Origin: an uncultured Acidobacteriia bacterium
Lineage (GTDB): Bacteria > Acidobacteriota > Terriglobia > Bryobacterales > Bryobacteraceae
Assembly (NCBI GenBank): GCA_903828455.1
Contig: CAIKMJ010000036.1
Span: forward strand, 35,973 to 99,972
Direction: 5' to 3'
DNA: 64,000 bases
The translations under genes and the position numbers were made by a program. This document shows positions 4,940 through 59,268 of this stretch, piece by piece. Positions within the stretch are counted from its first letter, which is position 1; the number at the start of each line of letters is the position of its first letter. The notes under the pieces were generated by a model. The model ran no database searches and was not told the DNA's origin. It saw only the letters and a program-made list of their open reading frames with translations.

Positions 4940-5056
4940 CTTCCGGGGCGCCGAGCGGCCTCCCTGCCCCGCCGCGCGCCGCCCGTGTGCAGCGGTTACA
5001 ACGGCGTCACGGATTGTGGGAGAATGATTACCGCTGCCGCGAGTCAGCCCTATTCT

Positions 5057-6232
5057 ATGAAACACACCGTCCGTGCCACCATGCTGAAATCCAGCATCGC
5101 CATAGCCGCACTTTTCGTCGCCCCGCTGGCGATGCACGCCCAGAAGGCGCCCCAGTGGAAGGTCGATCCGTTCTGGCCCAAGCCGCTGCCGAACAAGTGG
5201 TCGACGCAGCAGATTGTCGACATCTCGGTCGACAAGAACGACCACATCTGGATGATCAACCGCGACGAGCCGAAGCCGGATGAACTCGGCGCTTCCACCA
5301 CGCCGCCGCGCGCCGAATGCTGCGTGCTCGGACCGGAGATCATTGAGTTCGCGCAGGACGGCACGGTGCTCCGTTCGTGGGGCAAGAAGGAATACGTTCC
5401 CGGCTGGCCCAAGCATCTGCAGAGCATGATCGTGGATCCGGAAGGCAACGTCTGGATCTCCGGCACCGAGCCGGGCGACAGCATTCAGAAGTTCGACGGC
5501 AACGGCAAGCTCCTCTGGGACTTCGGCCATCGCTGGCCGAAGGACACGCCGATCAAGCAGGACAACCAGCGGACCGACCTGCTGATGGGCATTGAAGACT
5601 TCGAACTCGACTACGCCAACAAGGAAATCTACGTCAACGACGGAGCCCGCAACAAGCGCATTCTGGTGTTCGACATGAACACCGGCGCCTTCAAGCGCGG
5701 CTGGGGCGGCCACGGCGTGCCGCTCAGCGAGATCGACAACGACCCGACGCCGACCTACGACATCTCCGGTCCGCCGCCGGATTCCAAACAGTTCGTACAG
5801 GTGCTGCACACCATTCACCTTTCAAAAGACGGCCTGCTCTACATCGGCGAGCGCGGCGCGGATCGCGTTTCGGTCTACACCACACAGGGCAAGTTCGTCA
5901 CCAGCTGGTTCGTGCATCCTTCCACGCAGGCGCGCGGCGCCAACTGCGGCGGCCCGTTCGGCACCACCGCCGGCCCCTGCGGCACCATCTTCAACATGGC
6001 GTTTTCGGCCGACAAGGAACAGAAGTACCTGCTGGTGGCCGACGGCACCAACAACATGGTGTGGGTCTACGAACGCAAGACCGGCAAGCTGGTCAACTCG
6101 TTCGGCGGCAACGGCCGCTACGCCGGCCAGCTGCACTGGATCGACACCATCGCGACGGACTCGAAGGGCAACATCTACACGGGCGAAGTCGAAGACGGCA
6201 AACGCATCCAGAAGTTCGTCCTGCAGAAGTAG
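5057..6232 (+). CDS. secreted NHL-repeat / six-bladed beta-propeller protein (PAL-like)
   Basis: ORF 4985..6232. ATG at 5057 gives the signal peptide MKHTVRATMLKSSIAIAALFVAPLAMHAQ. Repeated D..GN.W/Y..D/E motifs (DPEGNVWISG, DSKGNIYTGE) are typical of NHL blades. Confidence 0.7.
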   Translation: MKHTVRATMLKSSIAIAALFVAPLAMHAQKAPQWKVDPFWPKPLPNKWSTQQIVDISVDKNDHIWMINRDEPKPDELGASTTPPRAECCVLGPEIIEFAQDGTVLRSWGKKEYVPGWPKHLQSMIVDPEGNVWISGTEPGDSIQKFDGNGKLLWDFGHRWPKDTPIKQDNQRTDLLMGIEDFELDYANKEIYVNDGARNKRILVFDMNTGAFKRGWGGHGVPLSEIDNDPTPTYDISGPPPDSKQFVQVLHTIHLSKDGLLYIGERGADRVSVYTTQGKFVTSWFVHPSTQARGANCGGPFGTTAGPCGTIFNMAFSADKEQKYLLVADGTNNMVWVYERKTGKLVNSFGGNGRYAGQLHWIDTIATDSKGNIYTGEVEDGKRIQKFVLQK

Positions 6233-6258
6233 CCCGGTTTTCAAAAGCAGCCCGGTTT
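6223..6258. repeat. 18-bp x2 imperfect tandem duplication of the gene 3' end (gcagaagtagcccggttt / tcaaaagcagcccggttt)
   Basis: Read directly. The first copy contains the last two codons plus the TAG stop (6230-6232) of the NHL gene. The second copy follows immediately, 15/18 identical, with TAG changed to CAG. Confidence 0.7.
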
Positions 6259-6260
6259 GC

Positions 6261-6308
6261 GCTCGCCGCGCGCGCGGTCAGATGATGTTGACCGCGCGCG
6301 CGGCGAGC
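6261..6308. terminator. perfect 20-bp GC-rich inverted repeat (8-nt loop) between convergent genes
   Basis: gctcgccgcgcgcgcggtca (6261-6280), loop gatgatgt, tgaccgcgcgcgcggcgagc (6289-6308). The right arm is the coding 3' end (LLAARAVNII*) of the 6278..6949 gene. There is no U-tract. Confidence 0.6.
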
Positions 6309-6949
6309 AGCGCCACCGTCGCCAGCGAAATCAAAGACTGCACGATCATCATGACCTTGGCCCAGCGTGACAGCACCGGGACGTCGGTCGGCGAAAAGGC
6401 CGTGCTTGTGTTGAAGGCCAGAAACAGGTAGTCGACGAACCCGGGCGACCACTTGTCCTCCCCCATCTGCCGCTGCAACTCGGGCGGCAACACCATCTGC
6501 GGAAACAGGAACGCACCGTCGCGGTGAACCCCGCGGCGGTCGCGTTCGTTCGGCCCGCCGCCATCGAGCCGCCAGTACCACGACGCGAATACCAGAATGT
6601 TGCCGACCCACAGGATCGAGGCGGCGCGCAGCAGGTCTGTCGGCTGCATCCGGTGATCCGGCAGCGAACGCACCAGCAGCAAGACCGACGAGAGCAGCGA
6701 CAGGGTGATTACGCCCAGCGCGCCGTAGGCAAACACTTCGTTCAGTTCGACCTTTCCCAGCCGGTGCGTGAGCGCGGTCGGGACCAGCAGCATGGCGACC
6801 AGGACCAGCGTCAGCCAGGCCGGGCCGACGACGAACGCCGCGGGAAGAACAAAGTGCAGCACGCCGTAGGTCAATACGGCCAGCAGACCGGGCCAGCGCG
6901 GCTCGGGCGGCAGGTTCTCGGGTCGAGGCGCGCTCGGCAGTTCGTTCAT
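6278..6949 (-). CDS. DUF1345-like integral membrane protein
   Basis: 223 aa with about 5 TM helices. The C-terminal pattern FVDYLFLAFNTSTAFSPTDV...ARAVN resembles the DUF1345 family as I remember it. Confidence 0.55.
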   Translation of the reverse strand: MNELPSAPRPENLPPEPRWPGLLAVLTYGVLHFVLPAAFVVGPAWLTLVLVAMLLVPTALTHRLGKVELNEVFAYGALGVITLSLLSSVLLLVRSLPDHRMQPTDLLRAASILWVGNILVFASWYWRLDGGGPNERDRRGVHRDGAFLFPQMVLPPELQRQMGEDKWSPGFVDYLFLAFNTSTAFSPTDVPVLSRWAKVMMIVQSLISLATVALLAARAVNII

Positions 6950-7067
6950 TGCGAACCCCCATCATCTCACCGGGCGGCATCAGGCGCGCTTCTGCCCATG
7001 GTTAGCGTTTCGGCGCTATCCAAATGCAGAATTCCGGCGGACGCCCAAACGCTCTACACTTCCGAAC

Positions 7068-8539: not shown

Positions 8540-8780
8540 CGATTTCGAATCGAAAAAACGAACCCACCGCCCGCATCGCGCACGGGGGCTGTTCGGGTTT
8601 GGCGCGGAGCGTGGACGGGCCGCGCTTCGGCACCGCGATTTGAAAAAACGAACCCATGTTTCGGATCGCGCACGGGGGCCGTTCGGGTTTGGCGCGGATC
8701 GTGGACGGCCGCTCGTCGCCACCTCGAATTGAAAAAACGAACCCAAGCTCCCGCAACCTCCGACTCGAATAAACGAAGCC
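8540..8780. repeat. 89-90-bp tandem repeat, about 2.7 copies, each starting gaaaaaacgaaccc
   Basis: The gaaaaaacgaaccc anchors sit at 8552, 8642 and 8731 (periods 90 and 89). Copies 1 and 2 share cgcgcacggggc(t/c)gttcgggtttggcgcgga(g/t)cgtggacgg. A degenerate aaacgaagcc lies at 8771. Confidence 0.85.
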
Positions 8781-9057: not shown

Positions 9058-9136
9058 CAAGGACAGAGTAAAAGGACTACGAGGACAACCAATGAGAGGA
9101 CAAGCAACGAATGGACAACCAATGAAAACGGGGAAG
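9058..9136. repeat. periodic GGAC(A/T)A array (5-6 GGA motifs, mostly 13-15 nt apart)
   Basis: GGA at 9061, 9074, 9083, 9098, 9113 and 9132. ggacaaccaatga occurs twice (9083, 9113). The minus-strand reading gives repeated UUGUCC / CCUC motifs immediately upstream of the 9015-9045 hairpin. Confidence 0.7.
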
Positions 9137-9402: not shown

Positions 9403-10434
9403 TCAGTACTTCTTCGTGACCTGCGAGGCGGGGTTGGATACCTCGAAGTGTCCGTTCTTGTGGGCCACCAGTTTGAGATAGTTGCCGGCGTCGCTGCCGC
9501 CCATGAGGTTGGCGGTCAGGCCGGGGTCGGTGTTGCGCTCCTTGCCGCCGGAGGCGATCTGGTGCAACTGCCAGAGGTCGACGAGGCCGGGCGAGGTGTG
9601 GACCACGTCCCAGGCCGGGGCCTGGCCGCCTTTCTTTTCGCCGTTGTTCATGATGGCCACTTTGGGATGCAGGGCGTGGACGAGGGCGGGCGAGCTGCTG
9701 ATCGCCATGCCGTGATGGCTGACGACGAGAAGATCGACGGGGGCGATTTTTGCGTTCGGGCACATGAGGTCGAGTTCCTTGTTCCACGTGAGGTCGCCGA
9801 GATCGACGATGCGGAATTTGCCGTAGGTGATGTAGCTGCCGGTGGATTGGGCGTTTTCGGTGGTATCGACGTCCTGCGGCTTCACGCCGGCGCATATGGC
9901 GTTCGGCTTCCCTGCCCCGGCGAGCGGCTTTTCGATGACCTTGCCGGCGGCGGAGACGATCTGCCAGTCGAGCCCTTTGACGGGGAGCTTGTCGCCCGGC
10001 TTCGCCACGATGTGGTTGCCTTTGGAGGCGACTTCGAGATAGCCGGCGTAGAGTTTTTTCGCGGCGTCGGCGGTTTCGACGGTTTCGCCGTGGTCGACGA
10101 AGTTCTTCACGGGCAGACGGGCGGCAAGCGCCGCGACGCCGCCGACGTGGTCGCCGTGATAGTGGGTGGTGATGAGGTAATCGATCTGCGTGACGCCGGC
10201 GTCTTTGGCGGCGGCGGCGATGCGTTTAGCGTCGCGCTCGGCGTTGCTCTCGCCGGGAAAGCCGGTGTCGATCAGGACGGTTTGGCCGGAGGGGGTGACG
10301 AAGAGAGTCGACTGGCCGCCTTCCACGTCGATGAAGTACGCGGTCAGGTCGCTGGAGGCGGCGAACGAGGGGGAGATAAGAAGCGAGAGCGAAAACAGCA
10401 GAGCCGGGGCGGCGGAAATCTTCATGGACCGCAT
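9403..10434 (-). CDS. secreted MBL-fold metallo-hydrolase
   Basis: ORF 9403..10500. Signal peptide MRSMKISAAPALLFSLSLLISPSFA, then the THYHGDHVGG (HxHxDH) metallo-beta-lactamase motif and a later SHHG. Confidence 0.8.
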   Translation of the reverse strand: MRSMKISAAPALLFSLSLLISPSFAASSDLTAYFIDVEGGQSTLFVTPSGQTVLIDTGFPGESNAERDAKRIAAAAKDAGVTQIDYLITTHYHGDHVGGVAALAARLPVKNFVDHGETVETADAAKKLYAGYLEVASKGNHIVAKPGDKLPVKGLDWQIVSAAGKVIEKPLAGAGKPNAICAGVKPQDVDTTENAQSTGSYITYGKFRIVDLGDLTWNKELDLMCPNAKIAPVDLLVVSHHGMAISSSPALVHALHPKVAIMNNGEKKGGQAPAWDVVHTSPGLVDLWQLHQIASGGKERNTDPGLTANLMGGSDAGNYLKLVAHKNGHFEVSNPASQVTKKY

Positions 10435-13332: not shown

Positions 13333-14730
13333 CTACTGAAAAAGCGCGCTGAAGTGCTTTTCCTTGACCTTGAAAAACTTGATCTGTGTCGATCCGGTCA
13401 CGGTGATGTAGAACTCTCGCTTGCTGTCCTGCCCGCGGAGCCGTTCGACATCGGGCATCAGAAACGAAGCAACACCGGTCGAAAAATTGGCCGACCGCAG
13501 GGCGCTGTTTGTTGTGACCGATCCATTTTCCAACTGAACCGGCTGCACGATGTCCTGGCGCGTGGTGTCGGTGATAACGATCCTATGGACTGACGAGGAA
13601 ATGGCGAAGCCGGAGCCGTTGAGATACTCGGGCGTGCTGGGCATGGCAACGACGTGAAGCATTTTTACGCGCATGTCGGCAGTTACGCTTGCGACGGTAA
13701 ATGGCAACATTTCGCGACTGGCGTTAACGGCCATTTGTTCGATCCACTGCTGGGGCGAGTAGACGAAGATGGTGTATCCGGATACGGCGCTTTGACGAGC
13801 GCAGGCCGCGCAGTGAGAGTTCGAGACTGCGGCAGTGAGCGCCGAGCCCCACACCGTCTCCTGGTCATTCAGCATTAATCCGATGCGGCGGTGCGGGTTC
13901 AGCCGGGCCTTCGCGATAGCGGCGGCGACTTCGGCGTCGGTCAGCATGTCCGGGCCGTATTGGGGGGATGCAGCCGGGTCGAGCGGCGGCGCCGCAGCAA
14001 TCGAGGTCTCAGACGGATACGGCCTCGGCGGTTCCCAGCCTACCGGCGCACTGATACCGGACCCGGTGAACGAGTTGACCGCGGGCCCGACAACAGGTGT
14101 GGGAGAGACAGATTCGGTCCGATGAATCGGCGCAGTGGCAACCGGTGCGACCACGGCAGGTGCGTTTACGGCGGGCGAAATGGCGGTCGGCGCAACTGCG
14201 GTGGGCGCAACTGCGGTGTGCGCAACTGCGGTGTGCGCAATGGCGATGTGCGCAATGGCGGTGGGCGCAATGGCAGCGGGTGCAACTGCGGTGGACGCAA
14301 TGGCAGCGGGTGCAACGGCGGTGGGCGCAATGGCAGCGGGTGCAACTGCGGTGGACGCAATGGCAGCGGGTGCAACGGCGGTGGGTGCAATGGCAGCGGG
14401 TGTCTGGGGCAGGACGGCGGGAACTGAAGCGGCAGACGAGGAGATTGCGGCAGCCGTGGCGATGGGCCCCATGTTGTTGGCACGGTCGCGCATGACATTG
14501 ATAATTTCCTGCGCATCATGCTTCGACGCGCCGGAGATGATCAGTTCATTGAATGTCGCGTCACCAATCGTCAACGATATCAGCGGCGCATTTTTGATGG
14601 CCTGGGCAATCATTTCGACAGGAACCGCACCACGGACCATGGCCCGAATCGTCTGATTGGTCATCATGCCGGACTGGGCCGGCGACAGGGCCGCACCCAT
14701 CAGAATCAAAGCTGCGATAGCACTTTTCAA
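13333..14730 (-). CDS. secreted protein with Ala/Pro/Thr pentapeptide-repeat linker
   Basis: 465 aa. Signal peptide MKSAIAALILMGAALSPAQS. The central section is (A/T)(A/V)(A/I)AP-type repeats, and the C-terminal about 220-aa domain is unrecognised. Confidence 0.7.
   Translation of the reverse strand: MKSAIAALILMGAALSPAQSGMMTNQTIRAMVRGAVPVEMIAQAIKNAPLISLTIGDATFNELIISGASKHDAQEIINVMRDRANNMGPIATAAAISSSAASVPAVLPQTPAAIAPTAVAPAAIASTAVAPAAIAPTAVAPAAIASTAVAPAAIAPTAIAHIAIAHTAVAHTAVAPTAVAPTAISPAVNAPAVVAPVATAPIHRTESVSPTPVVGPAVNSFTGSGISAPVGWEPPRPYPSETSIAAAPPLDPAASPQYGPDMLTDAEVAAAIAKARLNPHRRIGLMLNDQETVWGSALTAAVSNSHCAACARQSAVSGYTIFVYSPQQWIEQMAVNASREMLPFTVASVTADMRVKMLHVVAMPSTPEYLNGSGFAISSSVHRIVITDTTRQDIVQPVQLENGSVTTNSALRSANFSTGVASFLMPDVERLRGQDSKREFYITVTGSTQIKFFKVKEKHFSALFQ
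14176..14402. repeat. intragenic 15-bp tandem repeat (about 15 units) with a 60-bp higher-order repeat
   Basis: Units such as gcaactgcggtgggc / gcaatggcagcgggt are read directly. The block 14266-14325 recurs at +60 nt. It encodes the AIAPTAVAPA repeats of the 13333..14730 protein. Confidence 0.9.
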
Positions 14731-16449: not shown

Positions 16450-17475
16450 TTACGTTTTGAGGCGCGGGAAGAGGCGCTCGGCGTTGCCGCGGTTGATGGC
16501 CTGCCAGTCGGCGACGGAGAAGCCGCGGTATTGCGACAGCGGGTTGGTGGTGAGTTCGTAGTTGCGGATGGGCACGTCGGAGCCGAACAGGATCTGCGAG
16601 ACGGGGGCGAGGTCCTTCAGTGCGTCGAGGGCGGCGGGTTTGCCGGCGTGGGCGGTTTCGTAATAGAAGCGGCGGAATTCGTACTCGACGCCATGGGGGA
16701 GCTGCGCGAGGTGGTCCTTGGGGTAATCGTCGATCATGCGGTCGGCGAGGGTGGTGATGGCGCCGCCGGAGTGAGAGAAGATGAAGCGGATATTCGGGTA
16801 GCGGGCGGGGGTGCCGTTGTAGAGCAGGCTTTCGGCGGTGCGGGCGGTATCGAGATCGTACTCGATGATGCCGGAGAGGCCGAGGCCGGGCATCAGATCG
16901 CGGCAGCAGGAGCCGGCGGCGGGATGGAAGAACACGACGGCGTTGCGGCGGTTGAGTTCGGCGAAGACGGCGTCGAAGGCGGGGTCGCCGGGCCATTTGT
17001 CGCGATAGCTGGTCCAGAGCGCGATGCCGTCGGCTTTGAGGGTGTCGTAGGCGTACTCGATTTCCCTGAGGCTGCCGTCGCGATCGGGCAGCGGAAGGGC
17101 GGCGAAGAGGCCGAAGCGGTCGGGATGATCGCGCACGACCTGGGCGCCGAAATCGTTATTGAGGCGGGCGAGCATGCGGGCGCGCTCGCTGGTCTCGCTC
17201 ATGGAGTCGAGAACCAGGCGCTGGACGGGAGAGAGGATGGAGGTGGCGATACCGTTCTTATCCATGGTTTCCAGCGAGATGGCGGGCGACCACTGGCGGG
17301 GGGTCCAGTTGGTGCGCTTGAGTTCGTCCTGCATGGCGGTGACGTAGCCGGGCGGGATCATGTGATGGTGGACGTCGATGCGTCCGGCGGGGCGGGCCTG
17401 CTGGCCGCTGGCGGGGAGCATGGCTCCGGCGCCTGCCACGGCCATGGTTCTCAAGAAATCGCGGCGGGAATGCAT
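16450..17475 (-). CDS. Tat-exported amidohydrolase-2 family (ACMSD/LigI-like) metal-dependent hydrolase
   Basis: 341 aa. Twin-arginine signal MHSRRDFLRTMAVAGAGA. IDVHHHMIPPGY is the metal-binding motif characteristic of the amidohydrolase_2 family. Confidence 0.75.
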   Translation of the reverse strand: MHSRRDFLRTMAVAGAGAMLPASGQQARPAGRIDVHHHMIPPGYVTAMQDELKRTNWTPRQWSPAISLETMDKNGIATSILSPVQRLVLDSMSETSERARMLARLNNDFGAQVVRDHPDRFGLFAALPLPDRDGSLREIEYAYDTLKADGIALWTSYRDKWPGDPAFDAVFAELNRRNAVVFFHPAAGSCCRDLMPGLGLSGIIEYDLDTARTAESLLYNGTPARYPNIRFIFSHSGGAITTLADRMIDDYPKDHLAQLPHGVEYEFRRFYYETAHAGKPAALDALKDLAPVSQILFGSDVPIRNYELTTNPLSQYRGFSVADWQAINRGNAERLFPRLKT

Positions 17476-17520
17476 GCTGGTTCTCCGTGGATCGAAATCA
17501 GACTTTCCATTCTATGCCTG

Positions 17521-17735
17521 TTGGGCGGGCAGCGGTTGGGATGCCGGTGGGCGGGCAGCGGGGTCGCGGGGCTCGGGGTTGGGCGGGATCGCGGGGCGGG
17601 TGTGGCGCCACGGTCGGGGCCGCGTGGGAGGGGCGGGTGCGGGTTGCGAGTGCCGCGTGGGCGGGGCGGGTGTGGCGTCGCGAGTGTCGTGTGGGCGGGA
17701 CGGATGCGGGTATTCCGCGGGCTGCTCACGGGAAT
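17521..17735 (+). repeat. extreme G-tract region (more than 25 runs of GGG/GGGG on the + strand) in a divergent promoter region
   Basis: Read directly, for example GGGGTCGCGGGGCTCGGGGTTGGGCGGG and GGGAGGGGCGGGTGCGGG. ggggcgggtgtggcg occurs twice (17593, 17663). Confidence 0.85.
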
Positions 17736-17802
17736 TGCGGCAGGCAGTCGGGCGTGAAATAATAGCGTGAACCTATTCCGTTTTGTCCCGGAAGAGAAAC
17801 GA

Positions 17803-18792
17803 ATGCAGTCGCCATACGCACACAAACAATCGTCCGGATGGACACTGCGGAGCCTGGCTGCGAGGAGCGGGGCGCTGCTGGTTTTTGCCGCCGCAATAGC
17901 CGGGTCTGCGATGGCCGCCACGCTTCCTTTGCAGTTCGCCGCGCCGAAGGACGATGCCGTCCCGGTGGGCCTGAGTGTGAACGACGCATACCGGCTGACC
18001 TTCTTAAACAATGACGACGCGGTGCGGGCGCTGTTCGACTGGAAGTCCGCAGCGGAAGCGGGGACGGTCGAAGCCAGCCGTGTTATCGCGGGGCTGCCGG
18101 ATCCGGGCAGCGTTGGCTCCCTGCCAGCGAAGGGCGGCCGGAGCGTTGCGGTCACGGGCATTTCGCTGACGGCACTGGACCCCACTTACGACACCGACGG
18201 GCTGATGCCGGAGATTTTGCGCGAGTCCCACGCGCAGGCGGTCGCCGTCAGGTCCGAGCTGGATAAAGCGAAAGCGGAAATTGGCGGCGGTCAGGTGGCC
18301 GCGGCGCGGGAGCGGCTCGCCGAACTGGCGAGGAGCAGCGAAAGCGCCGAAGCGCTGATCCTGCTGGCTGAACTGGATGCAAAAAATGGCGCGCCGGCCG
18401 ACGATATGGTGAAGCAGTACATGAAGGCGCTGGCGGCCGATCCGAAGAATGCACTGGCGATGAATAATCTGGCCAATTATCTGCTGCAGTCCAACAGGAT
18501 CAATGACGCGATCTACTGGGGACGCAAGGCGCTGAAGACGGCGCCGGGCAATCCTTACGTGGCCGATACGCTGGGCTGGATTTATTTCCGCCAGGGCAAA
18601 TATAAAGACGCAAGGCCGCTGCTGGAGCTCTCCCTGCGGGCCGCGGCTCGTCCGGTGGCGCATTACCACCTGGCTGGTTTACTGGCGAAGACGGGCGAGA
18701 AGGAACGCGCCCGCGAGGAATACGGACTGGCGCTGAAGCAGGACGCAAAGTCCGAAGCGCGGTCGGATGTCAGCAGCTTGTTTGAACGGTAA
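17803..18792 (+). CDS. secreted TPR-repeat protein
   Basis: ORF 17767..18792 with ATG at 17803. Hydrophobic signal ALLVFAAAIAGSAMA. The C-terminal half has canonical TPR units (ALAMNNLANYLLQSNRINDAIYWGRKALKTAPGNPYVADTLGWIYFRQGKYKDA). Confidence 0.7.
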   Translation: MQSPYAHKQSSGWTLRSLAARSGALLVFAAAIAGSAMAATLPLQFAAPKDDAVPVGLSVNDAYRLTFLNNDDAVRALFDWKSAAEAGTVEASRVIAGLPDPGSVGSLPAKGGRSVAVTGISLTALDPTYDTDGLMPEILRESHAQAVAVRSELDKAKAEIGGGQVAAARERLAELARSSESAEALILLAELDAKNGAPADDMVKQYMKALAADPKNALAMNNLANYLLQSNRINDAIYWGRKALKTAPGNPYVADTLGWIYFRQGKYKDARPLLELSLRAAARPVAHYHLAGLLAKTGEKERAREEYGLALKQDAKSEARSDVSSLFER

Positions 18793-23988: not shown

Positions 23989-26109
<2,121 letters not shown>

Positions 26110-26150
26110 CTTCGGGCGACCGGGGACCGGTCAGACAGTTTCAAGTGAGA

Positions 26151-26180
26151 AGGCCGCCGGGCGACTGGCGGCCTTTTTAT
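26151..26180 (+). terminator. rho-independent terminator after the radical SAM gene
   Basis: aggccgcc (26151-26158) pairs with ggcggcct (26167-26174) and is followed by a T-run at 26174-26178. Confidence 0.75.
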
Positions 26181-26244
26181 TGTCTGCCGCAACTGGCGTA
26201 TAATTCAGAAGCTCCGTACGGAGTCAGAGAGGGAACCGCAACTC

Positions 26245-26778
26245 ATGATGTCAAAGAAATTCGCCGCGCTCGTTGTGCCGGCAATGCTGGTGGCGTTTCA
26301 GGCACCGGCCGTTCGCGCCGCCGATCAGGGTCTGATCATCCAGAAGGCTCTTTCGCTCGACATGGCCATTGCCGCCGCCGAGGGCGCGCTGGCGCAGTGC
26401 CGAACCATGAAATACAAGTGCGCCGTGGTGGTGCTCAACGGCAGCGGACGGACGCTGGTCTCGCTCGAAGACGACGGCGCCTTCATGCACCGGATGGACA
26501 TTGCGCACAAAAAGGCTTACACGGCACTGGTTTACCGCAAGCCGTCGAAAGAATCGGTAGAAGGCTGGTCGACGAAGATGGCCGCCGGGAAGCCGCTGGC
26601 GGAGGGCACGCTGCCTTCGCCGCCGGTGGAAGGCACGATCGCGATGGGCGGCGGACTGCCGATCATCGTGGGCGGGGAGACGATTGGCGCGATCGCGGTC
26701 AGCGGCGGCCCGGGCTGGGAGGCCGATGAGGCGATGGGGAAGGCGGGCCTTGCGAAGATTGCCGACAAGCTGAAGTAA
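26245..26778 (+). CDS. secreted GlcG/HbpS-like (DUF336) haem-binding protein
   Basis: 177 aa with a signal peptide. GGGLPIIVGGETIGAIAVSGGPG is the hallmark DUF336/GlcG motif. Confidence 0.8.
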   Translation: MMSKKFAALVVPAMLVAFQAPAVRAADQGLIIQKALSLDMAIAAAEGALAQCRTMKYKCAVVVLNGSGRTLVSLEDDGAFMHRMDIAHKKAYTALVYRKPSKESVEGWSTKMAAGKPLAEGTLPSPPVEGTIAMGGGLPIIVGGETIGAIAVSGGPGWEADEAMGKAGLAKIADKLK

Positions 26779-26794
26779 CAGACGACCGGAAACG

Positions 26795-26838
26795 AAAAGA
26801 GCGGCGTCACCGGTTGCAGCCGGCGGCGCCGCTCTTTT
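26795..26838. terminator. bidirectional terminator between convergent genes
   Basis: aaaagagcggcg (26795-26806) pairs with cgccgctctttt (26827-26838). The A-run/T-run flanks allow function on both strands. Confidence 0.7.
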
Positions 26839-26860: not shown

Positions 26861-26924
26861 TCTACTTCATCTAGTTTCTACTTCAACTCTTTTCTACTTC
26901 AACTCTTTTCTACTTCAACTCTTT
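26861..26924. repeat. 16-bp x4 tandem repeat (tctacttcaactcttt) copying stop codon plus last four codons of the MBL gene
   Basis: Three perfect copies at 26877-26892, 26893-26908 and 26909-26924, plus a degenerate tctacttcatctagtt at 26861-26876. The last copy holds the real stop (cta, 26910-26912) and the codons for KELK. Confidence 0.95.
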
Positions 26925-27785
26925 CATGAGGCCCTGCAGGCTCCACTGTTCCTGCAACGAGCCTTTCTTCCAGTTGAACTCGGTGGCCATGACCTGGAAC
27001 AATTCGTCGGCGCTCTTGCCGCCGCGCACGAGGCCCTGCGCGCGCGTCCGCAGCTTCTCCACCATGTTGCGGTATTCCTGGAGGCTGGCTTTCGTGGTCA
27101 CGGCGCCGTGACCGGGGATGACGGTATCGAAATCGAGCGAGGAGAGGACCTTGTCGAGCGTCTTCGTCCATTCGATGACGCTGCCGCCGCCGGGATAGTC
27201 GATGAGCGGGGTGTTGCCGGACATGAGATCGCCGGTGTGGACGACCTTCAGCGCGGGGAAATAGATGACCGCGTCCGTATTGGTGTGGCCGCGCCCGTAG
27301 AATTTCGCGCGAACTTCCTTGCCGCCGAGGAAGACGGACATTTCATCGTTGAAGGTAATGGTGGCCGGCTGGACGTCGGGCGCCGCCATGTTGGACTGCA
27401 CCTTGTTCAGGATGTTCAGGCGCGCCTGCTGGGTGGAAATGATCTGCGCGGTGCCGAGGAATTTGCCGTTGCCGCCGCTGTGGTCCTGATGATAGTGCGT
27501 GCTCAGGATGTACTTGACGGGCTGGCTGGTGACGGATTTGATGTTGGCGAGAATCTGGTCGTGGTCGGCATCGAACTTGTCGTCTACCAGAATGACGCCT
27601 TCGCTGGTGATGTAGACGGCCACGTTGCCGCCGTCGCCTTCGATCTCATAGAGATCTTCTTTGACTTTGTTGATTTTGAGCTGCGAGGGCGGGGCCTGCG
27701 TGTAGGCCAGCCATCCGGCAAAAAGGAACGAGACAACGGCGAGGGAGCGCGCAACGGTCTTCCGGGTCATGGAAAAGCGATTCAT
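26910..27785 (-). CDS. secreted MBL-fold metallo-hydrolase
   Basis: 291 aa. Signal or anchor segment, STHYHQDHSGG (HxHxDH), and a later GHG. Confidence 0.85.
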   Translation of the reverse strand: MNRFSMTRKTVARSLAVVSFLFAGWLAYTQAPPSQLKINKVKEDLYEIEGDGGNVAVYITSEGVILVDDKFDADHDQILANIKSVTSQPVKYILSTHYHQDHSGGNGKFLGTAQIISTQQARLNILNKVQSNMAAPDVQPATITFNDEMSVFLGGKEVRAKFYGRGHTNTDAVIYFPALKVVHTGDLMSGNTPLIDYPGGGSVIEWTKTLDKVLSSLDFDTVIPGHGAVTTKASLQEYRNMVEKLRTRAQGLVRGGKSADELFQVMATEFNWKKGSLQEQWSLQGLMKELK

Positions 27786-30942: not shown

Positions 30943-30980
30943 GCTGCATTCCCCGCGCCGATTGCGGCGCGGCGCAACAA

Positions 30981-31010
30981 AAAAGGCCCCGACGTTTGCC
31001 GGGGCCTTTT
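30981..31010. terminator. bidirectional terminator between convergent genes
   Basis: aaaaggccccg (30981-30991) pairs with cggggcctttt (31000-31010), with an 8-nt loop. Confidence 0.75.
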
Positions 31011-31030: not shown

Positions 31031-31141
31031 GATCGCGCGAACTTAGATTCGCGCCGTCTTCGATTCGCGCGAGCTTAGATTCGCGCGAGCTTAGATTCGC
31101 GCGAGCTTCGATTCGCGCGAGTTTAGATTCGCGCGATGAGC
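31031..31141. repeat. 16-bp x7 tandem repeat (gattcgcgcgagctta) copying the pckG stop codon plus last codons
   Basis: Units at 31031, 31046, 31062, 31078, 31094, 31110 and 31126. The last unit is the coding end (LIARI) and the real stop tta is at 31123-31125. Six units contain the 8-bp palindrome TCGCGCGA. Confidence 0.95.
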
Positions 31142-41792: not shown

Positions 41793-41948
41793 GCGTTCCT
41801 CTGATGTTAACGCGACGGGTCGGGGAGGCGGGGGGAGATCATGCGCGGAGATCATGCGCAGAGATCACGCGCGGGCGGGGCGGGCGGCGGCGCCCGGAAT
41901 TTCCAATGCGGCCTTCAATGGGAAGTGCCGGTGCCCGCCATCCGCCGC

Positions 41949-45955: not shown

Positions 45956-45993
45956 GCCAGGTCATAATAATCCAGCCAGGTCATAATAATTAT
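45956..45993. repeat. 19-bp x2 tandem duplication (gccaggtcataataat) abutting the dsbA-like start codon
   Basis: gccaggtcataataat occurs at 45956-45971 and 45975-45990. The second copy ends 1 nt before ATG 45992. Confidence 0.85.
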
Positions 45994-46636
45994 GATGCGT
46001 TTTTCCCTGCTGCTCTGCTCCGCCCTGATGCTGGCGCTCATGCCGTCCGTGCTGCCGGCACAAACCGCCGCGGCCAAAAAGACTGCCGCCCCGGCCGCCG
46101 CCCTGAGTAATTTCAAGGAGTCCGGCTCGCCCGGCGCGCCGCTCACCATCGAGCTGTACACCGATTACGAGTGCCCGGCCTGCCGTGAACTCTACCTGAA
46201 CGTGCTGCCGTCCGTCATTACGGACTTCGTGCAGACCGGCAAAGCGCGGCTGATCCACCGCGATTTCCCCCTGCCGCAGCACCAGTATTCGCGCGTGGCC
46301 GTGCGTTATGCCAACGCTGCCGGCCAGATCGGCAAGTACGACCTGGTGGCGCACCAGCTTTTCCAGACCCAGCAGGAATGGTCGCAAAGCGGAAACGTCG
46401 ACGGCACCGTCGCTAAAGTGCTTACGCCCGCCGAAATGGCCAAGGTGCGGGACGCGGTGAAGAACGATTCGAAGCTCGATGAGAGCGTGGCGAAGGACAC
46501 CGCCCAGGGCGGTCTGGACCGGCTGACGCAGACGCCCACCATGGTCATCGTCTCCGGCGGCAAGCGCGAAACGCTGGCCGGCAGTCTGCCCTACCCGATT
46601 CTGAAGACGTATCTGGAAAAGAAACTGGGAAAGTAG
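45992..46636 (+). CDS. secreted DsbA-family thiol:disulfide oxidoreductase
   Basis: 214 aa. Signal peptide and thioredoxin-fold active site YECPACRE (CPAC). Confidence 0.8.
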   Translation: MMRFSLLLCSALMLALMPSVLPAQTAAAKKTAAPAAALSNFKESGSPGAPLTIELYTDYECPACRELYLNVLPSVITDFVQTGKARLIHRDFPLPQHQYSRVAVRYANAAGQIGKYDLVAHQLFQTQQEWSQSGNVDGTVAKVLTPAEMAKVRDAVKNDSKLDESVAKDTAQGGLDRLTQTPTMVIVSGGKRETLAGSLPYPILKTYLEKKLGK

Positions 46637-52920: not shown

Positions 52921-54561
52921 TCATTTGTGAGGCCGCTTTTTCGCGGCCGCCTTGGGAGTCGGGGAAGCGTCGGCAGTGGAAGCTGCCGGGGACGCGGAGG
53001 CCGCGGATGCCGCCGGGCTGGCCGGGGAAGCTGCAACCGCCGGGGCCGTGCCGCCGGACGGGGACGCTGCATTGTTGGCCGGAGCTGAGGCGCCCGGTGC
53101 AGTCGGGGCGCCGGCTGCGGCGGGCGTCGCAGACGGGTCGGGAAGCGCACCGATCGGCTCCAGCTGGTAGCCGGTTCGTCCGCGAACGGCCCCCAGATCG
53201 AGCGTAACGGTCACTCGTTCCGACTTTCGCTTGTACTGATAGGCGCCGGCCAGAAGCTTCGTCGAATCGAGCGTGATGGTGTTCAGTTCCCCGCCATCGT
53301 TGATCAGCAACTCGCCGCGGTCGATACCACGGGTGGCCTGCGAGTTCCAGCGAATCTCCATGTCGCCGTTCGAATCGGTCGAAGTCATGGCCAGCGGCGG
53401 GCGCGGCATCCACATATCGCGCGTCAGAAAAATTCCGCCGCCACCCAGCAGGATAACGATCAGCGCAATCGCCGCCCACAGCGCACGCCGTTTGCCGGCT
53501 TGCGCCGCGGGCATCCGGGGTGCCGGAGAAGAAGCCGCACGAGCACCGGCCGGCGCAGAGGAGGGTCGAGGGTTGGTAACCAGGTTCGGATGCGCCGTCT
53601 GGGGACGCGCGGCAGCGGGCTCCTCGTCCAGTTGCGCGAAAAGGCCGGCCGTGATAAACGACGGCCGGGCCGCGGGCTTCGTCGACGCCGGTTGGGGGGC
53701 CACGGGTTGCGGGGACACGGGTTTGGGAACAGCGGGCGGCGGGGAGTCGCGCTGGACCGCACTTCGCGGTTCGAGCCGGGGCATTTCGGTCACTGGCGGA
53801 GGCGCGAAACTGAAGTCTTCCTCTTCAACCGCGGGCCGGTACGCAGCGGGCGGCGGGGGCGTGGCCTGCGCCGGAGCATGGTGTGACTGTATGGGTTGTG
53901 ACTGTATGGGTTGTGAATGTATGGGTTGTGAATGTATGGGGTGCGACTGTATCTGGCCCGACTGCGGCATCGGCATGACACCGGCCGGAGGATTTGCCAG
54001 CACCTTTGAGATCGCATCGAGCCGCGCAGCGACATCCCGCTGAGTCTTTTCGAGATCCGGCGGATTCCAGTCCCAGAGATCCTGCGACGTGCCCGCCTGC
54101 AAGGTGCCATTCTGACGAAAAAAGAAGGCCGCCTTGGCCACTTCGCCGGGGGCCGGCCGCACGACGAAGGCCACCTGCCAGGGCTCGGGACACAACAGGT
54201 CGAAGAGTTCACGTTCCGGGCCGCCGAGCGCGACCGGACCCCGCGTCCGCGTGCAGTAAAGACCGACGACGCCGCGATGCGATCCGGCATCCTTCAGCGC
54301 CTGCATGCTCTGGCGGATTTCGTCGGGAGTGAGCTGAAACGTCGGCCCGAGCGAATGCGAGCAAGGCAGTTCGATGGCACCGGTGATGCGAATGCCGGCG
54401 GCGGTTCTTTCACCGACCAGCAGCCCGCCGACGCCCATCCCGACGCGCGGCAGCGCAATGAGCCCGTCAGCTGCCCGCTGCCGGACGCGCTCAAGAGCGG
54501 CACACAGGTAGTCCACCGTAAACGGTAACGCCGGGTCCAGCCATACGGCCATCTCTGTCAT
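52921..54561 (-). CDS. single-pass membrane protein with N-terminal MPN/JAB-like (non-catalytic) domain, Pro-rich linker and extracytoplasmic domain
   Basis: 546 aa. N-terminus resembles the MPN fold (GLLVGE..; VVGLYCTRTRG where JAMM enzymes have HSHP). QPIHS repeats, TM LWAAIALIVILLGGGGIFL, and an Ala/Pro/Ser-rich basic tail. Confidence 0.6.
   Translation of the reverse strand: MTEMAVWLDPALPFTVDYLCAALERVRQRAADGLIALPRVGMGVGGLLVGERTAAGIRITGAIELPCSHSLGPTFQLTPDEIRQSMQALKDAGSHRGVVGLYCTRTRGPVALGGPERELFDLLCPEPWQVAFVVRPAPGEVAKAAFFFRQNGTLQAGTSQDLWDWNPPDLEKTQRDVAARLDAISKVLANPPAGVMPMPQSGQIQSHPIHSQPIHSQPIQSQPIQSHHAPAQATPPPPAAYRPAVEEEDFSFAPPPVTEMPRLEPRSAVQRDSPPPAVPKPVSPQPVAPQPASTKPAARPSFITAGLFAQLDEEPAAARPQTAHPNLVTNPRPSSAPAGARAASSPAPRMPAAQAGKRRALWAAIALIVILLGGGGIFLTRDMWMPRPPLAMTSTDSNGDMEIRWNSQATRGIDRGELLINDGGELNTITLDSTKLLAGAYQYKRKSERVTVTLDLGAVRGRTGYQLEPIGALPDPSATPAAAGAPTAPGASAPANNAASPSGGTAPAVAASPASPAASAASASPAASTADASPTPKAAAKKRPHK
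53881..53955. repeat. intragenic 15-bp x5 tandem repeat (ttgtgactgtatggg)
   Basis: Units at 53881, 53896, 53911, 53926 and 53941. They encode QSHPIHSQPIHSQPIQSQPIQSH on the minus strand. Confidence 0.9.
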
Positions 54562-55252: not shown

Positions 55253-56407
55253 ATGACGCGACGCTTTATCCTTTTTCTGTTTGCGGCCACGCTGGCGGCG
55301 CAGGCCGATCCGCACTGGGACGTCCAGTTCGAATACAAACAGGACGATGCGGTTCTGACCATCAACGACTTCGCCATGCTGCCCTCGGCGAACGGCGTGG
55401 CGCAGCGCGGCATTGCGTGCGGCTACGCCACCGACCATCGCAATAAGCAGCGGCCGCTGGTGCTGCTTACGATCGATGGCGGCGCGCACTGGACCGAAAC
55501 TGCCGTACACGAAACGGGCCTGTCGCTTTTCTTTCTCGACGACACAACGGGCTGGATGGTGACGGCGACCGGCGTGTGGCAGACCAGCGAAGCCGGCCGC
55601 AACTGGACCAGAAAAGTGAAAGCGCCGGGCGGTCTGACGCGGGTCTGGTTCCTCGACCGCAGACGCGGCTACGGCATCGGCAGCGAGCGCCGCATTTTCG
55701 AAACGATTGACGGCGGCGATTCGTGGATTCTGCTGCCCGGCGTGAAAGAGGTGGAGAGCGACCAGCGGACGACGACGTTCGGCGAGATTGCCTTCACCGG
55801 CAAGGCGGGCATCATTGCGGGCTGGAGCACGCCCGTGCGCTCGACGCCGCCAGTGACGGCGGCGACGGGGAGCGGCGGGACGAAGAGCGAACCGCCGCGC
55901 CAGACTCCGGCTTATTCGGTGATGCTGCAGACCGTGGACGCAGGGCAGACGTGGAAGAAATCCGACGCATCGCTGTTCGGGCAGATCACGCGAATCAGCA
56001 TGGCGCCGCAGGGCACGGCGCTGGGGCTGATCGAGTTCCGCGACAGGTTCGATTATCCGAGCGAGGTGTACAGCATCGATCTGCATACCGGCAAAAGCGA
56101 GCGGGCCTTCCGCGCGATGGACCGTGCGATTACCGACGTGCGGCTCTTCCGCGGACTTTCCACGGGCGTCATCGCCGGATATGAGACGCCGGGCGCGGCA
56201 GACCGGACGGGCGGCGCGGGCGGCCTGAGCCGGGTTCTCGTGCCGGGGAAACTGAAGGTGCTGATCAGCGAGGATCTGGCGCACTGGGACGAGATGTCGG
56301 TGGACGCGCACGCGGTGGCGCGTCGCGCGATGATCTCCGGGCCGGATCCGGATCATTTATGGATCGCGACGGATACGGGGATGATCTTGAGGCTGGTGCT
56401 GGAATAG
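55253..56407 (+). CDS. secreted Ycf48/BNR-like beta-propeller protein
   Basis: 384 aa with a signal peptide. Repeated S/T-x-D-G-G-x-x-W motifs (TIDGGAHWTE, TSEAGRNWT, TIDGGDSWIL, TVDAGQTWKK). Confidence 0.75.
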   Translation: MTRRFILFLFAATLAAQADPHWDVQFEYKQDDAVLTINDFAMLPSANGVAQRGIACGYATDHRNKQRPLVLLTIDGGAHWTETAVHETGLSLFFLDDTTGWMVTATGVWQTSEAGRNWTRKVKAPGGLTRVWFLDRRRGYGIGSERRIFETIDGGDSWILLPGVKEVESDQRTTTFGEIAFTGKAGIIAGWSTPVRSTPPVTAATGSGGTKSEPPRQTPAYSVMLQTVDAGQTWKKSDASLFGQITRISMAPQGTALGLIEFRDRFDYPSEVYSIDLHTGKSERAFRAMDRAITDVRLFRGLSTGVIAGYETPGAADRTGGAGGLSRVLVPGKLKVLISEDLAHWDEMSVDAHAVARRAMISGPDPDHLWIATDTGMILRLVLE

Positions 56408-56437
56408 CAGGTTCTGGAATAGCAGGTGCTGGAATAG
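56393..56437. repeat. 15-bp x3 tandem repeat (c(t/a)ggtgctggaatag) copying last four codons plus TAG stop
   Basis: ctggtgctggaatag (56393-56407, includes the real TAG at 56405-56407), caggttctggaatag (56408-56422), caggtgctggaatag (56423-56437). Confidence 0.95.
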
Positions 56438-56501
56438 CTGGCACCGATTGAGCAAGCGGGCGGCAGTGGGTTAGACTGAAAGCAGTTCGCCCGCCTGCAA
56501 T

Positions 56502-56575
56502 TCCCCGGTCGTCTAATGGTAGGACAGCGGCCTTTGACGCCGTGAATCGAGGTTCGAATCCTTGCCGGGGAGCCA
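56502..56575 (+). tRNA. tRNA-Gln (anticodon TTG), CCA encoded
   Basis: Hand-folded. Acceptor TCCCCGG/CCGGGGA, D arm GTCT-AATGGTA-GGAC, anticodon arm GCGGC-CTTTGAC-GCCGT (anticodon TTG). T arm CGAGG-TTCGAAT-CCTTG, then discriminator G and CCA. Confidence 0.93.
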
Positions 56576-56576
56576 T

Positions 56577-56830
56577 ACGTTTTGTGGTGGAAATGTTTTA
56601 TTGCAATTCGGTTGACCGCAGCACTTTTCCCCTCCCCCTGTAACCCCAACATTCCAAAGACTTCCGCATTTTCGGGTTCTCTCCGGTTTGAAACTCTGCT
56701 TCTCGATTTACGAGCTAAACCCCGGGGGTTGAGTTCGGCCCCCCATGTTTTCGGCATCAAACTCTCAGTTTTCTCTGTTGACAGGAAGCCTTTGTTGACG
56801 GCCCCGTCCAACGCGGGGTAACCGTCGTTA
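56577..56830 (+). repeat. direct repeat copy A (about 250 bp, block-wise conserved with copy B)
   Basis: Blocks shared in the same order with copy B: ggtggaaat, tcggttgac(c/a)gcagc, acattcc, g(t/c)ttgaaactc, aaccccgg, gttcggcccccc. Also ttttctctgttgacagg, tttgttgacggccccgtc, and taacc. Confidence 0.8.
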
Positions 56831-56850
56831 CATTTTTCAAACCGATGATT

Positions 56851-58074
56851 TCATTGCGTTTCTTCGGACGGTTCTGGCTGCTGCTTGAGCAGCACCTTGA
56901 TCATTTTCGTTCGATGATCGTAGCTGAGCCTTTCGACGAATTCCGGAATCTCCCTCAAATTGATATGATCTCGCCCGTCAACTGGTTTCCGAAGCCGTAT
57001 TTGTCGACAAACGGCCGCTTCAATCTGACCTGCCGAAACCTGGCCCCGACACGGCTTCCTGCCCCCAGCGGTGGACCGGCACCGGTAGTAGCAATAGGTG
57101 ATGCGACCATGGCGAACGGTGTGGGGCGTCATGGGTCGATCGCAGACCGCGCACAGGATCAGGCCTTTCAGCGGCCAGATGTCTCCATACGAAACCGCGT
57201 CCGATGCCCGCGTCCTGCGCGAATCAAGCTGCTGACCAACCGCGTCGAAAACCTCTCGGGTGATCAGGGGTTCATGGCAGCCGGGGCGGGTACCGGATCC
57301 CGACCGAAACCCGCCGGTATAGACAGGATTCCGGAGTGTCGCCAAAACCTGTCGCGCCGTCCAGGGGTTGCCACCGAATTTCGGGATGTAACGCCCTTCG
57401 GTTTTCACTTTGGTCCTGGATCCTTTGTCGTTGGCTTGTTCAGCGATATCCGCCGGCACCTTTCCGACGGCCGCCTGCGAGAACATCCACTTCACGATCT
57501 CCGCCTCATCCTGCAGCGGAACCAGCTGTTTGGTGTACACATCGGTCGTGTAGCCGAAAGGCACAGCGCCGGCGATTCGTTGTCCCCGGGCTTTCAGTCT
57601 TGTGCGGGACTCAGCGATTCTCGAGGCAATCATCTCCCGTTCGAACTCGGCGAAGGAAGCCAGGATGTTGAGCATCAGGTTATCCCCCGCAGCATCCCCG
57701 AGTTCCGGTGCCGTCACGATGACCAACCGGACACCGTGGCTGCGAAGTTCTTCGAGCAAGGTGGCGGACTTGATCAGGCTGCGAGCCAGTCGGTCCATCC
57801 GATAAATCACGACTGCGTTTACAGCGCGGCGAGCAACCAGCTCTCTGAGTCGAGTGAGCGCAGGGCGGTCGAGCGTAGCGCCTGAATAACCGTCATCGTC
57901 GAAACGATCCGCGACGAGAAGCCACCCCAACTCACGCATCGAGTGAACGTATGCCGCGCAAGACTGGTACTGGATTTCGCAGGAAGAGATGTCATCGTCC
58001 GACGAGGCTGACTGCCTGGTGTAAATGGCACAGACCGTGAACTGCCGCGTCGTCGGTCCGGTTTTCCGCTGCAT
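56851..58074 (-). CDS. large serine recombinase (resolvase catalytic domain plus recombinase domain plus zinc ribbon)
   Basis: 407 aa. N-terminal AIYTRQSAS (catalytic Ser region), YRMDRLARS, recombinase domain, and Cys-rich CAVCDRPM...YYRCRS...KPC zinc-ribbon. Confidence 0.85.
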
Positions 58075-58154
58075 CCGTTCCCATCATCTTCCATGTGAGG
58101 GCTTGCTCCCCTTTCGCGGGCCGGACAAAGCTATCCTGCAATAGGAACGTCTCA

Positions 58155-59204
58155 GTGCCGCTGCAGCCTAAATTTCGGATCACCAACGCCATCGCGGGGA
58201 ACCTGACCCGGATTGAACGCGCGCGAGGTTTTCTGGATGCCGCGAGGCTCTCCGAGGACTGGATCGCCGGGATGCAGCAGCGGGCTTTGGTACTCGAGGC
58301 GCATCACACGACGCACATCGAAGGCACCCACCTGACGCTCGACCAGTCCGAACGTCTGCTCGCGGGCGAGAAGCCCGACGGCGTGAAGGCCGACGACGCC
58401 AAAGAAGTTACGAATTACCGGAAAGCAGTTGACCTGGTCGCGGACTATCTGGGCAGTGGTGATCCGGTCACCGAAGGTCTGATTCGCGAAATCCATAAGC
58501 GGCTGGTCCGCGGCGTGCGAGGGAATGCGGCCGCGCCCGGTGAGTATCGCAAGATTCAGAACTACGTGGCGAATTCGCTCACGAAAGAGGTCATATACAC
58601 GCCGCCTGCACCGCAGGAAGTTCCGCCGCTGATGGCGGAGTTCGTCTTATGGCTGAATGCGGAGCAGGATGTGCATCCGATCCTCGTAGCCGGAATAGCG
58701 CAGTTTCAGCTCGTCCACATTCATCCGTTTCTGGACGGCAACGGCAGGACGGCGCGGTTACTGTCGATGCTCTGCCTGTATCGCAAAGGCTACGATTTCA
58801 AGCGGCTGTTCACGCTGAGCGAATACTACGATCGCGACCGCCCCAGCTACTACCGGGCTATTCAGAGTGTGCGAAAACGCGATCTTGATCTGACCGAATG
58901 GCTGGAGTACTTCACTTTCGGCTTGCAGTGGCAACTGGCCGAAGTGCAGGAGAAGGGCGAGACGCTCATCCGCATGGATGTTCTCGCAAAAAAACATAAG
59001 CTGTCGGCCCGGCAAATAGTGGCGCTCGAACTGGCCCAGCAGGGCGCTACATTCCAGATGCAGGATTTCGAAGCCCGATGCCCGGGAGTGCACCGGCGCT
59101 CACTGCAGCGTGATCTCCGGGAACTTGTCGATGCCGGCCTGCTCGAAGTAACGGGTGCCACGAACCGTCTGGTTTACATGGCCCCGGGCAGTCGCCAAAA
59201 CTAG
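58155..59204 (+). CDS. Fic-family protein (AMPylase-type) with N-terminal inhibitory motif and C-terminal winged-helix domain
   Basis: ORF 58095..59204. GTG 58155 follows AGGAA, with an alternative GTG at 58095. Fic motif [16 protein letters not shown], inhibitory (S/T)xxxE(G/N) as TTHIEG, and a C-terminal wHTH-like [14 protein letters not shown]. Confidence 0.85.
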
Positions 59205-59268
59205 CGACAAGCTTGCGACACAACTAGCGACACACTTGCGACACAACTAGCGACAAACTTGCGACAGG
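59191..59268. repeat. 23-bp x3 (11-12-bp sub-unit x6) tandem repeat starting in the last codons and stop of the Fic gene
   Basis: gtcgccaaaactag (real TAG at 59202-59204), cgacaagcttgcgacacaactag (59205-59227), cgacacacttgcgacacaactag (59228-59250), cgacaaacttgcgacagg (59251-59268). Confidence 0.9.

Follow-up and report, generated by a model that had tools for sequence, protein, structure and literature searches.

In the Mycobacterium tuberculosis complex the MIRU-VNTR arrays, among them the one in the rnc-fpg1 spacer, are bacterial VNTR or minisatellite loci in which head-to-tail repeats of 10-100 nt lie in spacers against gene boundaries, are lineage-specific and vary in copy number among close strains, with slippage as their accepted origin (PMC2734929). 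Borg elements of Methanoperedens combine a genome-specific high repeat density with rapid turnover between close variants; their in-gene repeats have periods that are always divisible by 3, those of their spacer repeats mostly are not, and the authors of that work describe arrays with a first unit that falls wholly or partly inside the end of a gene (PMC9879509). A third comparison is offered by the marine Beggiatoaceae, whose intergenic TAACTGA direct repeats are one heptamer used genome-wide and proposed to be regulatory (PMC4679880). The arrays described here, from a member of the Bryobacterales (Bryobacteraceae, Acidobacteriota) found in freshwater lake metagenomes, share the listed properties of the first two systems and, with the third, the presence of stop triplets in short spacer direct repeats. 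They also depart from all three. The many MIRU loci carry related units and form a dispersed family (PMC2734929), whereas here each unit is made of the last codons and stop of its own gene and the units are unrelated. Borg repeats are nearly all perfect, A-biased and carried on a giant archaeal linear element (PMC9879509), whereas these arrays are partly decayed (75-93% matches by Tandem Repeats Finder, TRF) and sit on a bacterial Bryobacterales chromosome segment among housekeeping neighbours such as pckG, ftsY and rnr. Unlike the heptamer of the Beggiatoaceae (PMC4679880), the units here are locus-specific. A literature search found no direct precedent for recurrent stop-spanning tandem repeats in prokaryotes or Acidobacteria; such arrays are without found precedent in bacteria, yet the mechanism is ordinary.

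The array at the end of a metallo-beta-lactamase-fold (MBL) gene, in the 64-kb window (the whole stretch of DNA that was analysed), involves the following features.

26910 to 27785, minus strand: metallo-beta-lactamase-fold hydrolase gene, a 291-codon ORF with a Lactamase_B domain and a signal-like N-terminal segment, whose 3' end seeds the array
26909 to 26924, minus strand: proximal unit u1, in which the true KELK codons and stop TAG (26910-26912) of the MBL-fold gene are followed by 1 nt
26877 to 26908, minus strand: units u2 and u3, non-coding and identical to u1, with TAGs in frames +1 and +2
26861 to 26876, minus strand: distal degenerate unit u4, AACTAGATGAAGTAGA, with 3 mismatches; another strain has a 13-nt unit at the same position
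26795 to 26838, no strand assigned: bidirectional intrinsic terminator hairpin, 22 nt past the distal end of the array

TRF reports a period of 16 at 26861-26924, with 4.0 copies, 93% matches and a score of 107. Read on the minus strand the unit is AAAGAGTTGAAGTAGA, or AAA GAG TTG AAG TAG A in codons, which encodes K-E-L-K-stop and adds an A; in plus-strand order TCTACTTCATCTAGTT is followed by 3 copies of TCTACTTCAACTCTTT. A pattern search places units with 0 mismatches at 26877-26892, 26893-26908 and 26909-26924 and one with 3 mismatches at 26861-26876, and the initial annotation's description of three perfect copies and a degenerate fourth stands. The four 16-nt units are contiguous, and a CRISPR array was rejected because they abut directly with no unique spacers between them; the array comprises exactly 4.0 copies, with no visible homology at its border. 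Outside its own array the unit has no match in the window by pattern search, while 0.10 matches are expected in shuffled sequence and 4 matches occurred in 0 of 100 shuffles. In 100 windows simulated under a first-order Markov model tandem repeats scored 69 at best and arrays averaged 0.5 per window, against 18 TRF rows observed.

The 26795-26838 hairpin combines a 12-bp outer stem with an inner stem, with A-runs and T-runs at its flanks and a fold z of -4.7; its long loop caused a simple terminator scan to overlook it, and it was confirmed by folding, which finds the array proper unstructured. It serves both the MBL gene and the convergent HbpS-like gene (26245-26778, plus strand), and the array lies between it and the MBL stop, as had been proposed from the sequence. 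The convergent gene, the second of a pair at 23989-26778, encodes a secreted HbpS-like haem-binding or haem-degrading protein; the gene before it codes for a 706-residue radical-SAM protein that has an N-terminal zinc ribbon of the HMPTM type. The pair may have a link with haem or cofactor metabolism. A search for proteins identical to the MBL product returned no match, probably on account of a differing start call.

Stop-spanning arrays are present in at least six genes: the MBL gene, pckG, three further genes of the window and one gene about 3 kb upstream of it. The remaining ones, with the hairpins or palindromes beside them, are these.

31033 to 31136, minus strand: stop-spanning array of pckG, 16 nt x 6.5, with the real stop TAA (31123-31125) in the proximal copy
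30979 to 31010, no strand assigned: bidirectional terminator hairpin at pckG, 22 nt past the distal end of the array
56395 to 56438, plus strand: array of the BNR/Ycf48-like gene 55253-56407, 15 nt x 2.9, spanning the stop at 56405-56407; VLE-stop occurs three times, all in frame
59198 to 59266, plus strand: array of the Fic gene, 23 nt x 3 or six half-units of 11-12 nt, with the stop (59202-59204) in the first unit
6225 to 6260, plus strand: decayed two-copy 18-nt duplication of the beta-propeller gene 4940-6232, spanning the stop at 6230-6232
6258 to 6309, no strand assigned: near-perfect GC-rich palindrome of about 24 bp, probably a bidirectional terminator, which abuts the 6225-6260 duplication and encloses the stop of the convergent gene 6278-6961 (minus strand)
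L100:854-908, about 3 kb upstream of the window start: array of an NHL-repeat gene, 15 nt x 3.7, in the 41-nt gap between convergent genes

At pckG, where the same phenomenon had been reported with the same unit length, both points were confirmed. The unit, TCGCGCGAATCTAAGC, contains an 8-nt palindrome, the array border carries an 8-nt partial copy, and the PEPCK C-terminus aligns with the ends of solved PEPCK structures. Copied stops decay at three of these loci: TAA has become GAA in distal copies 2 and 5 at pckG, the second copy at 6225-6260 has CAG in place of TAG, and one copy on L100 reads TAC for TAA. The NHL-repeat protein encoded there ends KKY-ALKK-stop, as if the first-copy stop had been lost by this change and one 5-residue unit added to the frame. 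No motif is common to the six units, and six arrays with six unrelated units point to local events and not to a mobile or dispersed sequence. A dispersed family of the REP/BIME, MIRU or TAACTGA kind was rejected on the same ground, the MBL unit moreover occurring only in its own array, and an Rfam search of the window at the families' gathering scores found no family at any array, its sole match being a tRNA (56502-56572). That tRNA-Gln gene (56502-56575) is followed by a gene for a large serine recombinase (56851-58074, minus strand) and by the Fic-domain gene (58155-59204). The 2016 runs X2 and X3 lack the interval 56600-58077, and in them the Fic region is only about 95% identical; window positions 56502-59266 are probably a strain-variable integrated islet. 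The Fic array region is about 25 nt shorter in the 2016 populations, roughly one 23-nt unit.

Perfect repeats can be miscounted by short-read assemblers, and the Logan contigs, which together with unitigs supplied the alleles of the runs, break inside the MBL array, which speaks for an assembly artefact, a refuting condition named in the initial annotation. The array is, against this, shorter than one read. Runs X1 and X4 both yield a 46-nt cyclic unitig (k 31 + 16 - 1), which requires real periodicity and implies at least 46 nt of it without mismatch, matching the array of the window. A distinct allele with linked SNPs occurs in an independent JGI contig, L080, which is 99.2-99.4% identical to window positions 17693-37818, and in three other runs. 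In L080 it consists of two perfect units and a 13-nt unit and measures 45 nt, 19 nt less than the 64 nt of the window; the 64-nt allele is found in the window, X1 and X4, and the 45-nt allele in L080, X3, X5 and X6. ENA scaffold L099 (99.98% identical) exactly reproduces the BNR and Fic arrays. An assembly origin is on these grounds scarcely credible and is refuted as to the existence of the array, while the exact copy number in each strain rests on assemblies.

The strain comparison proposed in the initial annotation thus reveals a polymorphic locus, and pckG behaves alike, with 6.5 units in the window and X1 and 3.5, three fewer, in L080, X2 and X5, again with linked SNPs. Over the roughly 20 kb shared by the window and L080, every indel is a change of tandem units in a 3' flank. 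L080 alone has a newborn 15-nt duplication, AAGCGGGCCGGGAA[G/C], which starts 17 nt past a cytochrome b/c stop, is absent from the window and shows GGAA microhomology at its bounds. Flap-endonuclease mutants (yeast rad27 or bacterial Pol I 5'-nuclease) accumulate short duplications bounded by direct repeats. The L080 event resembles them as a de novo duplication of tens of bases with microhomology; the window itself contains no repair genes.

The orthologues of the MBL gene indicate which state came first. At 23 orthologous loci in genome bins, where the gene is 52-71% identical, intact gene ends read ...PGM(M/F/I)xEL(K/R)-stop, for example ...PGMMKELK-stop, and are followed by unrelated sequence; a single KELK-TAG also ends the gene in the two nearest relatives from metagenomes (77% and 74% identity). 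An array like that of the MBL gene is absent from all 23 and from both relatives. Since the orthologues end in a single KELK-stop, the array is the derived state, a recent lineage-specific reiteration of the gene's own end. Its unit is the conserved KELK-stop end of the orthologues and stems from local sequence, not from an imported element, and the reading of the proximal copy as the real gene end is borne out both by the ORF stop at 26910-26912 and by the orthologue C-termini. With head-to-tail units, a strain-variable copy number and a local origin, the MBL locus belongs with VNTRs and minisatellites. A repeat stands at the stop of an MBL orthologue at L088:789-814, a 7-nt unit, TGAAGCT, x 3.6; the match there covers residues 4-214 only, and this orthologue may have been truncated by a frameshifting repeat.

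Could the copies be footprints of a mobile element instead? Cuts with a 15-16 nt stagger near stops would leave target-site duplications, and repeated rounds of insertion and excision would add copies. The mode of the unit lengths at 15-16 nt fits such a stagger, and one locus has the expected look. In L013, another Bryobacteraceae bin (9675-9790), the 16-mer at the MBL stop, GAAGGAACTGAAGTAG, recurs 92 nt downstream with one mismatch, and the two 16-nt copies of the KELK-stop end flank a 77-nt insert carrying a GC-rich hairpin, whose 38-nt core recurs 8 kb away on the contig at 1728-1765. This structure suggests either the 16-bp target-site duplication of a REP- or MITE-like element or a two-step history in which a duplication was later split by an insertion. 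The second hairpin copy, however, has no flanking repeat, unit lengths range from 13 to 34 nt, and no repeat-insert-repeat structure of the L013 type exists at any stop of the window. Precise excision with retention of the duplications is not a known route in bacteria. The mobile-element reading was rejected for the window because no insert lies between its direct repeats, such a structure being seen only in L013, and it is very improbable as a general account of the arrays.

A different possibility is that the copied stops are useful. The TAGs copied in the MBL array lie 16, 32 and 48 nt downstream, in frames 1, 2 and 0, and stops appear in all three frames because 16 mod 3 = 1. The initial annotation had these positions and frames right; the significance it implied for them did not survive, the pattern being a matter of arithmetic and four results opposing a selected function. 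The 'ambush' hypothesis and tandem back-up stops predict single conserved codons under selection. The arrays resemble such systems in placing extra in-frame and off-frame stops shortly downstream of the real one, but here the stops are passengers of a duplicated unit, decay, and are absent from orthologues. An adaptive function could take the form of three-frame back-up stops against readthrough or frameshift, to which the 16-nt arrays do lend themselves, or of a contingency-locus-like tuning of the distance from stop to terminator, with effects on termination or mRNA stability. That distance has grown from about 23 to 71 nt at the MBL gene and from about 32 to 112 nt at pckG, populations differ in copy number, and, as judged from sequence, the longer distance could affect termination. 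Yet in the 15-nt and 18-nt arrays every copied stop falls in a single frame, each MBL unit already holds TGA and TAG in two frames, orthologues do without any array, near-identical strains differ in copy number, and neither the decay of copied stops nor the lack of a common motif among the six units fits a shared function. The combination expected of back-up stops, extra stops conserved among orthologues and intact within the array, was not found. An adaptive role is accordingly improbable.

A census of tandem direct repeats (13-mers, at most 1 mismatch, periods 8-40) found periods divisible by 3 at 10/10 coding loci and at 5/12 non-coding loci, as would be expected of duplications that arise everywhere but persist only when they are non-disruptive. 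The window holds 0.34 loci/kb against 0.11/kb in 889 kb of related Bryobacterales, and the excess over relatives runs from about 3-fold in the 13-mer census to about 5-fold for TRF arrays. Relatives with one third of the density suggest that the lineage itself is unusually prone to short duplications. TRF arrays span a stop in 4 of the roughly 54 genes of the window (5 with the decayed 6225-6260) and in at most 1 of the roughly 800 genes of the relatives, whose stop-anchored repeats (about 890 kb of Bryobacterales) are not commoner than repeats at a control anchor.

Two repeats that might be mistaken for gene-end arrays were rejected as such, both being in-frame coding repeats. At 14169-14402 a 30-nt unit x 7.8 lies in a 465-codon ORF (13333-14730, minus strand), and at 53882-53952 a 15-nt unit x 4.7 forms QPIHS repeats in a proline-rich 546-codon ORF (52921-54561, minus strand); neither ORF has a Pfam match. 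The array at 41834-41874, 13 nt x 3.2 between rnr and ftsY with an ATG in each unit, spans a start only if the longest ORF is taken, and the FtsY domain layout and a ribosome-binding site put the start at 41795, which leaves it a spacer array.

These observations are most readily explained by slipped-strand duplication in a duplication-prone lineage, filtered afterwards by selection, so that the arrays would be of VNTR type and a neutral by-product; this reading can be given a probability of about 70%. The ancestral MBL gene would have ended in ...KELK-TAG about 23 nt ahead of the terminator hairpin, and a slipped-strand or template-switch event would have duplicated a 16-nt segment that by chance held the stop codon. 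Once two copies were present, further slippage could expand and contract the array. The first copy would always terminate the protein correctly and each copy would bring its own stop, making the expansion invisible to selection on the protein, whereas the same event a few bases further into the gene would shift the frame and be lost. A duplication that spans the stop leaves the protein unchanged and is non-disruptive by construction. If the lineage produces short duplications (typically 13-23 nt) unusually often, the survivors should lie in spacers, across stops, and within genes only at periods divisible by three. The additional copies would be transcribed in the 3' UTR upstream of the terminator, the longer distance from stop to terminator being their only likely effect. 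The perfect head-to-tail copies and single decayed distal copy at the MBL gene speak for this reading, as does the decay of copied stops at pckG, 6225-6260 and L100. What is observed are the arrays, their derived state, their polymorphism, the rule on periods and the loss of distal stops; slippage as the source, a contribution from pausing at nearby hairpins, and neutrality are inferred from them.

Four observations sit less well with slippage followed by a selection filter. Unit lengths cluster at 15-16 nt; the L013 lineage duplicated almost the identical 16 nt at the same gene end; no array in the window clearly spans a start codon, though the model predicts about as many there as at stops; and stop-spanning arrays are more numerous than uniform neutrality predicts. 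If tolerated duplications fall uniformly on the gene map of the window, an event of 16 nt takes in a stop in 7% of cases. Among 14 non-coding arrays in about 68 kb of genome, 1.1 are expected to span a stop and 6 do (P = 4e-4). When the two arrays from which the finding started are set aside, the count is 4/12 (P = 0.013). The enrichment at stops that the initial annotation asked for genome-wide, approximated here on about 68 kb, is present as an excess and is suggestive, not decisive. It would disappear if duplication is tolerated at only about 10-35% of spacer positions, which is plausible because promoters, ribosome-binding sites and terminators fill spacers. A duplication near a start is found at 45956-45994, where a two-copy 19-nt tandem duplication (GCCAGGTCATAATAAT plus 3 nt) copies the translation-initiation region of a thioredoxin-like signal-peptide gene and ends 1 nt before its ATG.

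The excess at stops leads to the question of whether the mutational process itself favours gene 3' ends. The short spacer that separates stop from terminator could be a preferred site for the seeding of duplications, possibly through polymerase pausing at the GC-rich terminator hairpin or through transcription-replication or ribosome-linked stalling at gene ends, and the association with stops would then be a property of the process and not of selection alone. Besides the enrichment over the uniform model, the position of the arrays speaks for such a bias: those of the MBL gene, pckG and 6225, and the duplication found only in L080, each sit between a stop codon and a hairpin resembling a terminator, and both 16-nt arrays end 22 nt from theirs. 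The palindrome in the pckG unit can form slipped hairpins. Hairpin-induced polymerase pausing is an established trigger of slippage (Viguera et al. 2001, as cited in PMC9879509). On the other hand no canonical terminator adjoins the BNR, Fic or L100 array, relatives with the same terminators lack arrays, the sample is small, and such a bias is compatible with slippage plus a selection filter and does not exclude it. As an addition to the filter it is live but unproven, and as the explanation of the association with stops it is unlikely.

A bolder variant would see here a Borg-like, genome-specific process in a free-living acidobacterial lineage, which seeds 15-16-nt tandem duplications preferentially at the junction of translation stop and terminator and has left about 9% of genes with a reiterated stop plus C-terminus. 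This is unlikely. If it held, in-frame arrays would be ready-made C-terminal extensions, released when the first stop mutates, at which the KKY-ALKK-stop end on L100 may hint, and events at gene ends (terminator hairpins, termination of transcription and translation) would be coupled to replication slippage and repair in a way not yet described. Should the excess at stops hold genome-wide, gene 3' ends would be mutational hot spots for short duplications in some bacteria, and the repeat proliferation of Borg elements, itself unexplained, would have a counterpart in bacteria.

On slippage with a selection filter, the arrays offer a natural illustration of how selection shapes where mutations survive, as slippage that spans a stop would go unseen while the same event a few bases upstream would be lethal. 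The arrays can serve as strain markers for this lake population. They also call for caution from annotators and assemblers, as contigs break or collapse at them.

Further repeats of the window lie outside the stop-spanning class. At 8546-8745, upstream of an ABC ATPase gene, a 90-nt unit occurs 2.2 times with 85% matches and has internal hairpin potential; the independent contig L100 ends exactly at this repeat. The spacer array at 9081-9125 (15 nt x 3) has a unit, GAGGACAACCAATGA, that resembles a ribosome-binding site and start codon, with no convincing gene after it. In the divergent promoter region between the genes 16450-17511 (minus strand) and 17758-18792 (plus strand), positions 17520-17711 hold G-rich repeats with periods of 25-37 nt, including one of 34 nt x 2.8.
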